Shown here in pieces: positions 2,569-3,676 of a stretch of 8,722 bases of DNA (within the stretch, counting starts at the first letter, position 1; each line of letters starts with the position of its first letter). This DNA is from a virus (taxonomy: Duplodnaviria; Heunggongvirae; Uroviricota; Caudoviricetes). The position numbers were made by a program, and so were the translations under genes. The stretch is from the IMG/VR virus record IMGVR_UViG_2526164674_000023. One strand, written 5' to 3'. The notes under the pieces are model-generated. The model was not told the origin of the DNA, did no database searches, and worked only from the letters and a program-made list of their open reading frames with translations.

Positions 2569-2609
2569 TACAATAAAAAACTGTTTTTGTGTCAACAGTT
2601 TTTAATTGT
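2569..2609. promoter_or_regulatory. O_L-like operator / leftward promoter: imperfect inverted repeat caataaaaaactgt - N10 - acagtttttaattg with TTGACA (minus strand, 2595..2590) at its centre
   Basis: Seen directly. The left arm (2571-2584) is identical to the left arm of the palindrome between the repressor and cro-like genes (3606-3619); about 40 bp are near-identical to the O_R-like site in inverted orientation. A perfect -35 hexamer TTGACA faces the leftward operon. The -10 assignment is uncertain (TAGATT at a long spacer). Confidence 0.45.
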
Positions 2610-2619
2610 TGTTTTGGGC

Positions 2620-2641
2620 AAAAAAATCCCTCGAAAGAGGG
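2620..2641 (-). terminator. rho-independent terminator at the end of the repressor/antitoxin/toxin transcription unit
   Basis: Minus strand reads CCCTC-tttc-GAGGG followed by A-TTTTTTT (plus-strand A run 2620-2626, stem 2628-2632 / 2637-2641), about 20 nt downstream of the toxin stop codon (2661-2663). Confidence 0.6.
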
Positions 2642-2660
2642 AGTATGAAAATTGTTCAAC

Positions 2661-2948
2661 TCAGATAGAGAAGGGAAATTGTCGCCGAGAATGTGTCACG
2701 CTTACAATCTCAATGCTTGAAGCAGCTACTCTGTACAGGATTATGTAGTTAGGGTGGGTCACGATCTCTCTCAATCCAGAAACCCGTTCGCTTGGTGGAT
2801 ATAAGTACGGATGCTCAGATAGAGGTAATACCGATGTTTCAATGCGTATTTTTAGTCTACGTGCTGCCGGTGGGTTCTCCTTGGCGATGTAAGTTATGAT
2901 CTGGCGCAAATCATCGCGAGCAGACGGTAGCCATAAAATGGGTAACAT
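2661..2948 (-). CDS. type II toxin, RelE/ParE superfamily (95 aa)
   Basis: Translation MLPILWLPSARDDLRQIITYIAKENPPAARRLKIRIETSVLPLSEHPYLYPPSERVSGLREIVTHPNYIILYRVAASSIEIVSVTHSRRQFP matches the ParE/RelE pattern (W..A..DL..I..YIA..NP.AA ... GLRE ... Y.I.YRV....IEI..V.H.RR). Its start codon overlaps the stop of the upstream small ORF (TAATG), the classic antitoxin-toxin arrangement. Confidence 0.8.
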   Translation of the reverse strand: MLPILWLPSARDDLRQIITYIAKENPPAARRLKIRIETSVLPLSEHPYLYPPSERVSGLREIVTHPNYIILYRVAASSIEIVSVTHSRRQFPFSI

Positions 2949-3139
2949 TACTCGCTCTTGTTAGTTACAGCAATTTGAGCAATAAGATTTTCCATTTCAG
3001 CCATTACCTCGTCATGTGGAATTGCGGGGCGAGTGTCTGCAAGGCTTGACGTTACTTTAGTGCGCAACCATTCGTTGTAACTGTTTTCTTGTTCGGTAGT
3101 TTCGAATTCTGAAACTATCGGAGAAAGGGCTGTACCCAT
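2948..3139 (-). CDS. putative antitoxin of the ParE-like toxin (63 aa; ParD / addiction-module-antidote-like)
   Basis: Small acidic protein MGTALSPIVSEFETTEQENSYNEWLRTKVTSSLADTRPAIPHDEVMAEMENLIAQIAVTNKSE encoded immediately upstream of and translationally coupled to the toxin. SD GAGGAG 5 nt before the ATG at 3139. The ...IPHDEVMAEM... C-terminal motif resembles ParD-class antitoxins. Exact family not confirmed. Confidence 0.6.
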   Translation of the reverse strand: MGTALSPIVSEFETTEQENSYNEWLRTKVTSSLADTRPAIPHDEVMAEMENLIAQIAVTNKSE

Positions 3140-3166
3140 GGCATAACTCCTCTTCTTGTACTGTGG

Positions 3167-3568
3167 TCACGCCCGGCGGCTTTTTTGTGCCGCCAGCCAC
3201 CTAGCAATGGTTTCTTCCATTGATTTTTTCTTGTCTTTGATTTCTTGAAGCATTTTTTCTTGGTCTTCCTCAGGAAACGCACTAAAAGCTTGGAGCAGTT
3301 CGCGTTGGCGAGGACCAATTTTCATCGTGTCAGGGGTGAAAATTTGCTCACACTCTTCAGGAGGCAATAAAAACCAATGCAATGGATGCCCTGAAACCTC
3401 AACCAGTTTATCCAAACTTGAGGCTTTAGGTGTAGCCTTACCGCTGACCCATTGTTGAACAGTTTGTTGTGTCACACCAATTCTACGGGCAAGCTCAGCC
3501 TGGCTCCATCCAGTTTCCTGAAGAAGCTTGCTGATTCTGTACATAGATACTTCTAGGGCGCTCATCAT
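3167..3568 (-). CDS. prophage repressor, HTH XRE-family, DicA/CI-like, no peptidase domain (133 aa)
   Basis: N-terminal helix-turn-helix (SQAELARRIGVTQQTVQQWVSGKATP). C-terminal region ELLQAFSAFPEEDQEKMLQEI resembles the DicA-type repressor C-terminus. Divergent from a cro-like gene across an operator palindrome. Start may be ATG 3568, 3565 or 3544; no SD is visible, so a leaderless transcript as for lambda cI/P_RM is possible. Confidence 0.85.
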   Translation of the reverse strand: MMSALEVSMYRISKLLQETGWSQAELARRIGVTQQTVQQWVSGKATPKASSLDKLVEVSGHPLHWFLLPPEECEQIFTPDTMKIGPRQRELLQAFSAFPEEDQEKMLQEIKDKKKSMEETIARWLAAQKSRRA

Positions 3569-3585
3569 TATTCAATTTTACAGGT

Positions 3586-3676
3586 AAATACTGTTAAAAG
3601 CATCACAATAAAAAACTGTTGATTGCATACAGTTTTTTATTGTAGGCTTTGCTTATAGTTTTTAGAGGAGGGCAAA
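3586..3676. promoter_or_regulatory. O_R-like operator and divergent promoter region: perfect 14-bp-arm palindrome caataaaaaactgt - N9 - acagttttttattg (3606-3642), extra actgtt half-site at 3590-3595, TTGATT -35 (3619-3624), TATAGT (3654-3659), SD AGGAGG before cro-like ATG 3677
   Basis: Seen directly. The palindrome lies in the 108-bp gap between the divergent repressor and cro-like genes. On the repressor side a TAAAAT hexamer sits 6 nt before the ATG at 3568. Exact promoter hexamers are uncertain. Confidence 0.5.

Follow-up and report, generated by a model that had tools for sequence, protein, structure and literature searches.

The stretch of DNA analysed here, 8,722 nucleotides of the virus record IMGVR_UViG_2526164674_000023 and referred to below as the window, comes from a cryptic (defective) lambdoid prophage of Escherichia coli O157:H7. 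Two near-identical AT-rich dyads, found at 2570-2609 and 3605-3643 on the two flanks of its immunity region, represent in all likelihood the OL and OR operator regions, respectively, of the lysogeny switch of this prophage, their functional unit being not the 38-bp palindrome but a 15-bp operator—ACAR-N7-YTGT with an A+T-rich centre—present three times at OR and twice at OL. The original prediction, made from the sequence of the window, had already proposed that the two sites are OL- and OR-like and overlap the early promoters; this reading fits the positions conserved in orthologous prophages as well as the switches of CP-933P (PMC8630535) and of Qin, with its DicA and dicBp (PMC10448788).

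The operator unit in the window

Both dyads were recovered as they had been described, by a repeat search supported by shuffling. The arms of the right dyad (3605-3619 and 3629-3643) are 100% complementary with a gap of 9 nt, i.e. they are perfect, as had been stated, but they measure 15 nt (ACAAT...) instead of the 14 bp given. The left dyad was returned as 2565-2585 and 2594-2614 (21 nt, 86%), its inner 14-nt arms being unlike at one position and having a spacer of 10 nt. The sequence CTACAATAAAAAACTGT at 2568-2584 is a 17-nt perfect match to the reverse complement of 3629-3645, and the half-site AATAAAAAACTGT, with at most one mismatch, occurs in four places in the 8.7 kb, all of them in the two dyads. 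The longest dyad arm of 15 compares with at most 12 in 100 shuffles that kept the local composition (up to one mismatch, spacer 3-16). The embedded -35 boxes are likewise present in the central spacers, TTGATT at 3619-3624 on the plus strand and TTGACA as the reverse complement of 2590-2595.

The pattern ACAR-N7-YTGT occurs exactly five times in the window, versus 0.68 expected, and every occurrence falls in one of the two loci. Three of them (3580, 3605 and 3629, with spacings of 25 and 24 bp) lie within the 108 bp that separate the start codons of the repressor (ATG at 3568) and of ydaS (ATG at 3677) and constitute OR; the two in OL (2570 and 2595, 25 bp apart) flank the TTGACA box that precedes the ydfA-dicF-dicB operon. 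Concerning the former, OR1 (ACAGTTTTTTATTGT, 3629..3643), an exact match to the pattern, is positioned between the -35 and -10 boxes of PR, and its position is kept in Salmonella, Klebsiella and Pluralibacter. OR2 (ACAATAAAAAACTGT, 3605..3619) abuts the PR -35 box from upstream, having on its other side the weak -35 region of PRM, and OR3 (ACAGGTAAATACTGT, 3580..3594), the position of which is also kept in orthologs, abuts the -10 box of PRM. At the left locus, OL1 (2570..2584), situated in the spacer of PL, reads ACAGTTTTTTATTGT on the minus strand and is identical to OR1, and OL2 (2595..2609), reading ACAATTAAAAACTGT on the minus strand, is found upstream of the PL -35 box. A third operator was searched for at OL and none was found, the place 24-25 bp beyond OL2 being taken by the operon terminator.

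Inside each 15-mer the half-sites ACAAT and ACAGT are 10 bp apart centre to centre, which is one helical turn and the distance expected of a helix-turn-helix (HTH) dimer. Each dyad arm is a whole operator. The reading of each site as one operator, with 14-bp arms of unusual length, is not supported, the long dyad being mostly unconserved in orthologs, and the 1-bp difference in the central spacer that had been remarked on is simply that between the 24- and 25-bp operator spacings. Moreover, the related third 15-mer at 3580-3594, now OR3, had been overlooked. It should be pointed out that OR2 is the exact reverse complement of OR1, that the same holds for OL1 and OL2 with one mismatch, and that four of the five window operators are nearly one and the same sequence, the uncontacted centre, an asymmetric A-tract, included.

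Over the 49 kb of the window prophage, the pattern has seven matches, five of which are the A+T-centred operators of OR and OL; the remaining two lie inside tail genes and their centres are 1/7 and 4/7 A+T. Adjacent operator pairs at 22-26 bp occur three times in the 49 kb versus never in 300 shuffles. The search for further half-sites in the prophage that had been suggested, run with the 15-mer pattern, yielded no additional operator sets outside OR and OL in the 49 kb.

Conservation in orthologous prophages

Homologs of the repressor were collected, the loci being taken from a contig scan (five of them informative) and from exact-protein look-ups, and the repressor-ydaS intergenic regions of the window, Salmonella, Klebsiella michiganensis and Pluralibacter were aligned. 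Repressor identity to that of the window is 80% for Salmonella, 68% for K. michiganensis, 70% for Pluralibacter and 48% for Arsenophonus. The first three loci have three matches each at identical OR positions and, on the downstream side of the repressor operon, another two with a spacing of 23-24 bp, despite the unlike cargo in between, with few further pattern matches elsewhere in each 8.4 kb; Arsenophonus exhibits 2 + 2 operators. The OL of the orthologs thus consists of two operators as well, and an OL set with the same operators at the leftward promoter is present in the window and in four other genera. All 22 operator sites examined are 15 bp long with N7. Their ACA ends are invariant by construction of the pattern; half-site position 4 is A or G, position 5 is T in 34/44, and the centres are 91% A+T.

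The complementarity between neighbouring operators reaches 15/15 in the window OR and 14/15 in both the window OL and the Salmonella OR. Taken together with the octamerisation of PaaR2 of CP-933P, which has the same C-terminal domain as the window repressor (PMC8630535), these values could suggest that a repressor tetramer or octamer recognises each 38-bp dyad as one composite operator and that the long two-fold symmetry is functional. Such an arrangement is, however, quite unlikely, because the other six orthologous pairs have a complementarity of only 10-12/15, which does not exceed their direct identity, OR3 is solitary, 25 bp off and with no dyad partner, every 15-mer is itself a dyad, its half-sites being separated by one helical turn, and the spacing of the units varies across the loci from 23 to 25 bp. 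The 38-bp symmetry seems rather to arise from the near-identity of four of the five operators, with their asymmetric A-tract centre.

Predicted promoters

At PR, the predicted -35 box TTGATT (3619..3624, plus strand) has its first T in common with OR2 and is separated by an 18-bp spacer from the probable -10 box TAGGCT (3643..3648, plus strand), the first T of which is common with OR1; all orthologs have TTGAYN in the same register and TANNNT, respectively. At PL, the predicted -35 box TTGACA (2590..2595, minus strand), with TTGAC kept in all orthologous PL regions, is followed after a 19-bp spacer by the candidate -10 box TAGATT (2565..2570, minus strand), then by 7 nt and by the conserved CCAACC leader. 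The order at PR and PL in five genera is O2 / TTGA(C/T)N / O1 / TANNNT, the -35 box sharing the last T of O2 and the -10 box that of O1. The assignment of the PL -10 box is independently supported, since its distance to the leader matches that of PL933P of CP-933P (TAAACT + 7 nt + CCAACC), the hexamers of the latter prophage being our own reading of the sequence of locus L020.

The predicted -10 box of PRM, TAAAAT (3575..3580, minus strand), precedes by 6 nt the start codon of the repressor (ATG at 3568), an arrangement kept in the orthologs and corresponding to the geometry of PRM933P (GATAAT + 6 nt + ATG), which implies that the repressor mRNA from PRM would be leaderless. PRM has no good -35 box, which is consistent with its activation from OR2; the centre of OR2 would be placed at about -44 from both predicted start sites.

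With the promoters positioned in this way, the dyads can also be considered at the level of RNA. The original prediction had offered as an alternative that they are AU-rich hairpins terminating transcription weakly in both directions. For this, or for some other role at the RNA level, the folds predicted for both strands of both sites, -13 to -21 kcal/mol with z from -2.4 to -5.6 versus shuffles, might be quoted; such stability is, however, trivial for any long dyad. The stems consist almost entirely of A-U pairs, with the U-run located within the stem and no U-tract after it, and a search of Rfam with them gave no match. The orthologs keep the ACA/TGT ends, not the complementarity. The inferred starts of PR, PRM and PL are outside the dyads, and the dyads would therefore not be part of these transcripts. 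Finally, the operon is already ended 10 nt before OL2 by a canonical GC-rich terminator: the minus-strand hairpin with a T-run that had been noticed between parE and the left site is indeed present there (2620..2642, stem 2627-2642, T-run 2620-2626) and represents the intrinsic terminator of the repressor-paaA-parE operon, with a hairpin of -9.6 kcal/mol and then U7. It is thus extremely unlikely that the dyads function as RNA elements.

As far as the PL leader is concerned, it covers 2430-2558 on the minus strand (about 110 nt), begins about 7 nt past the PL -10 box and is conserved in heteroimmune relatives, with 63 invariant columns across CP-933P, another E. coli type, Salmonella, Pluralibacter and even Arsenophonus; an identity of 81-97% was seen in 12 phage records, an Actinobacillus phage among them. 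There is no N-like gene after PL. The leader has no match in Rfam at E<=1, RNAalifold predicts for it a weak consensus of two hairpins that includes 2 compensatory pairs, and blastn against phages did not match HK022, to whose putL the leader is not closely related in sequence. It might act in cis, in antitermination or in processing.

Repressor and its recognition helix

The immunity repressor (3167..3568, minus strand; Pfam HTH_3) is a protein of 133 aa combining a 434-like HTH with a PaaR2-like C-terminal helical domain. An S24 peptidase domain is absent from it, as had been foreseen, Pfam finding HTH families only and the C-terminus being a helical hairpin; this groups it with the non-cleavable repressors of the DicA, PaaR2 and Gifsy type, and makes induction by means other than RecA-stimulated self-cleavage a reasonable expectation. 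The AlphaFold2 model (mean pLDDT 81) consists of a five-helix HTH (4-67), a linker disordered at 76-83, and a C-terminal helical hairpin (86-132).

Among solved structures, the best sequence match is the DNA-binding domain (DBD) of the phage 434 repressor (E = 3e-5). In the phmmer comparison with 2r63/1per, residues Q23, T33, Q34, Q35 and Q39 correspond to Q17, T27, Q28, Q29 and Q33 of 434, and the recognition helix TQQTVQQ matches that of the 434 repressor; Q34 and Q35 are invariant in 15 aligned repressors. In the work of Anderson et al. from 1987 and of Aggarwal et al. from 1988, Gln28, Gln29 and Gln33 of 434 reportedly read the ACAA bases. One dimer of the window repressor would be expected to bind each 15-mer via a 434-type helix-turn-helix. 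The Cro protein of 434 carries QQS, and the YdaS protein of the window, its Cro analogue, has a QQTV helix, too. Concerning the 434 operators, OR and OL hold three 14-bp sites each, the outer 4+4 bases are conserved (ACAA..TTGT, with the model site ACAATNNNNATTGT), and the centre, uncontacted yet tuning the affinity, ranks best when A/T-rich (PMC1636474).

The recognition helix and the operators go together across the loci. All five loci with the ...QQTVQQW helix carry ACAR-N7-YTGT sets; the four with K or R at the equivalent of 434 Gln33 are without them and have other repeats shared by OR and OL, and the sets are also absent from locus L005, which has a very dissimilar helix, INSHVVQQW. The heteroimmune relatives, with K or R at the 434 Gln33 position of their repressors, keep the O2 / -35 / O1 layout with other half-sites, these being ACAC...GTGT in L016 (3879-4000, 4944-5000) and L002, and ...AAAGTTGT in L003/L004 (3850-4000). 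They form a natural series for studying specificity switching.

The sites might, in principle, be bound by another factor alone—YdaS, the PaaA-ParE complex of the toxin-antitoxin (TA) pair, or a nucleoid protein drawn by A-tracts—given that YdaS has a similar xQQTV helix, that autoregulation at palindromes is a feature of classical type II TA operons, and that the operator centres are A-tracts. This is, nevertheless, very unlikely. The 63-aa PaaA matches the PaaA2 'stability determinant' family only, no DNA-binding domain having been found in it with Pfam, the second site is located at a promoter outside the TA operon, and the pattern follows the repressor recognition helix from locus to locus. 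In CP-933P, both the PaaR regulator and YdaS bind (PMC8630535), and binding of YdaS is to be expected besides that of the repressor, not in its place. The ydaS gene (3677..3949, plus strand; Pfam PF15943), coding for this YdaS-family Cro analogue, is the first one of the PR operon; its orthologs share 51-54% identity and keep the xQQ[TS]V helix.

Comparison with known switches

The switch of CP-933P (Sp12) was studied by Jurenas et al. (2021) using electrophoretic mobility shift assays, DNase footprinting, 5'RACE and gfp fusions (PMC8630535). There, PaaR2, which octamerises, and YdaS both bind the paaR2-ydaS intergenic region and repress PR933P and PL933P, the latter lying beyond the TA operon and its promoter fragment being active and repressed; a low dose of PaaR2 activates PRM933P, and the paaR2 mRNA is leaderless according to 5'RACE and N-terminal sequencing (PMC8630535). 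A further promoter of that switch is PRE933P. The window has the same arrangement: the repressor, paaA and parE point leftward, ydaS and ydaT rightward, and a dicB-type operon is driven by PL from beyond the TA genes. Its PaaA-family antitoxin (2948..3139, minus strand; Pfam PF21217, 5.6e-19) is 70% identical to PaaA2 and its ParE-family toxin (2661..2948, minus strand; Pfam PF05016) 67% identical to ParE2, YdaT is nearly identical to its crystallised counterpart (3c4r/8bt1), and the C-terminal 98 residues of the repressor (37-133) are 42% identical to PaaR2. The PRM geometry, i.e. -10 box, 6 nt and ATG, is the same and the PL leader homologous. By contrast, the N-terminal DNA-binding domain of the repressor does not align with that of PaaR2, and the YdaS pair gives no alignment, either. 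The operators differ, too, CP-933P having repeats of the GTTTAGTAA type, four inverted repeats or OR1-3 and OL1-3, instead of the 3 + 2 sites ACAR-N7-YTGT; PaaR2-type repeats (consensus GTTTAGTAA) are absent from the window, and the OR sequence of CP-933P is unrelated. The repressor was also considered as PaaR2 itself, which was rejected, as PaaR2 starts with MQKKE and aligns C-terminally only. Judged by its sequence, the window repressor is a domain-swapped paralog of PaaR2, and with both operators and DNA-binding heads unrelated, the two prophages should be heteroimmune.

With phage 434 the window shares a recognition helix beginning with T-Q-Q and having Q at the residue-33 equivalent, the presence of QQ helices in both Cro and repressor, outer bases of the ACAA/TTGT type, an A/T-rich centre, and three operators in OR. 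The differences consist in the 15-bp (N7) instead of 14-bp (N6) operators, the fourth base being A or G, two instead of three sites in OL, a PaaR2-type helical domain in place of S24, and an identity of about 30% that concerns the DBD only. The system works like 434, but is not a member of the 434 immunity.

In Qin, the short DicA, with no RecA cleavage site, represses dicCp and dicBp, and the antirepressor Rem relieves its action independently of RecA, the behaviour being bistable (PMC10448788). DicA/DicC and the window have in common a cro-like gene, the leftward ydfA-ydfB-ydfC-dicF-dicB operon and operator sets at both promoters; they differ in repressor specificity, in the TA pair that is inserted in the window between the repressor and PL, and in the number of operators, three having been reported at both Qin loci (PMC10448788) versus 3 + 2 here.

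The tripartite OR with a spacing of ~24 bp between divergent PR and PRM, together with a second set at PL, is found in lambda as well, and the cI mRNA from PRM is leaderless in lambda as the repressor mRNA would be in the window. The lambda operators are, however, 17 bp long and of unrelated sequence, OL has three sites, and the repressor undergoes RecA-stimulated self-cleavage. The OL-OR distance is about 2.4 kb in lambda, whereas it is about 1.0 kb in the window. Octamer-mediated looping between OL and OR is known from lambda (summarised in PMC8630535).

Proposed mechanism

The operators with their statistics, the positions and register that they keep in orthologs and the homology of the domains can be read directly; from them we infer repressor binding, the start sites, PRM activation, looping and induction without RecA, which would be combined as follows. 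The repressor on O1 and O2 would occlude both PR and PL, and on OR2 it would probably stimulate the leaderless PRM transcription of the repressor-antitoxin-toxin operon, the occupancy of OR3 then shutting PRM off. The Cro-like YdaS probably binds these operators too, with the order of preference reversed. Higher-order assembly is probably the task of the PaaR2-like C-terminal domain, and may include a loop of about 1 kb between OL and OR. PL, the perfect -35 box of which is flanked by the OL operators, would drive the ydfA-ydfB-ydfC-dicF-dicB operon, which would thus be placed under the control of the immunity repressor. Induction would proceed without RecA-stimulated self-cleavage, e.g. by an antirepressor, as known for DicA and Rem. 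This is the classical logic of lambda and 434, run by a non-cleavable repressor of the PaaR type.

It is conceivable, although unlikely, that the exact 38-bp symmetry reflects the binding mode of octameric PaaR-type repressors, with a tetramer docked on O1 and O2 around the -35 box. The opposed A-tracts would then phase the bending of the DNA, which would be coupled to the unusually short OL-OR loop (about 1 kb); if true, this would be a 434-type reading head on another oligomerisation scaffold with a 15-bp operator geometry.

There are several points that weigh against the interpretation of the dyads as OR and OL with 15-bp operators. The window itself supplied the operator pattern, post hoc, and the tests on other loci came later. 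The loci sharing the helix and the pattern are also the closest relatives, so that the covariation, coarse as it is, lacks phylogenetic independence. Operators of 15 bp versus the 14 bp of 434 mean that the geometry of the dimer must differ from 434. A Foldseek search of the PDB gave generic XRE folds without 434 at the top (TM 0.77-0.81 for the 434 DBD), the link to 434 resting therefore on sequence. As for the promoters, their assignments are based on consensus and positional homology, and a consensus scan of 2300-3800 reported neither PR nor PL, since only 7/12 positions match at PR, while the 19-bp spacer of PL is suboptimal and out of range; the sole hit of the scan, 2679-2708 inside parE, was dismissed as being at chance level. 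The predicted operator-promoter register is conserved and agrees in position with the mapped promoters of CP-933P.

Source and neighbouring elements

The stretch 2400-3700 is 100% identical to many chromosomes of E. coli O157:H7, and at least 80% of it is carried by 509/5,426 complete E. coli genomes. In strain TR01, the integration of the prophage adjoins yccA, and the prophage is probably CP-933M/Sp3. Its module is probably the paaR1-paaA1-parE1 paralog, the locus of Hallez et al. (2010); a single passing mention of PaaR1 turned up in the literature.

The leftward operon of the Qin type, ydfA-ydfB-ydfC-dicF-dicB, is present on the minus strand downstream of OL. It begins with the ydfA-like gene of DUF1391 (2228..2383, minus strand; Pfam and annotation), beyond which there are ydfB, the ydfC-like gene, DicF RNA (937-988, minus strand, 76.9 bits) and dicB (563-751, minus strand; Pfam and annotation). 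An inverted repeat at 764-787 and 907-930 (24 nt, 92% complementary, 119 nt between the arms) would, in the minus-strand transcript, bring together the bases immediately 3' of DicF and those immediately upstream of dicB. It looks like a long double-stranded RNA stem, possibly the RNase III site that generates DicF in Qin (PMC10448788).

On the right, ydaS is followed by the gene for YdaT, a CII analogue (3933..4358, plus strand; PDB 3c4r / 8bt1, E about 1e-83), and then, rightward, by replication genes. A mosaic joint between the window and CP-933P is located near the 3' end of ydaS. The ydaS/ydaT junction contains at 3926-3943 an exact YdaT box, TTGATT-N6-AATCAA (a recognition motif taken from PMC9986795), with 0.04 expected by chance, and in view of this box and the near-identical YdaT, a PRE-like leftward promoter activated by YdaT is probably common to the window and CP-933P. 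Repeats of the AAGGGGCTT type, about 11 bp long, occur in clusters at 5278-5319 and 5534-5586 within a 400-aa replication-initiator-like open reading frame (ORF; 4988-6190) and resemble origin iterons within an O-type gene. Finally, there is an ORF of 163 aa on the minus strand (4565-5056) between ydaT and the replication genes, in which RefSeq has a shorter coding sequence, 'ECs1072 family phage-associated protein'.

Significance

To our knowledge, no operator map has been published for this immunity type. What is defined here is the operator code, 3 + 2 sites of ACAR-N7-YTGT, along with the likely promoters, of an immunity type that is present in about 500 of the 5,426 complete E. coli genomes and has relatives in Salmonella, Klebsiella, Pluralibacter and Arsenophonus. 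No new mechanism is revealed. The sister system has already been characterised experimentally. In O157:H7, the switch would control both a ParE toxin-antitoxin pair and the DicF/DicB inhibitors of cell division. The switch of CP-933P and its sister in the window have the oligomerisation domain, TA cargo, YdaT and PL leader in common, but the sister carries a swapped 434-like head and another Cro—a natural domain swap useful for heteroimmunity among the many prophages residing together in O157.

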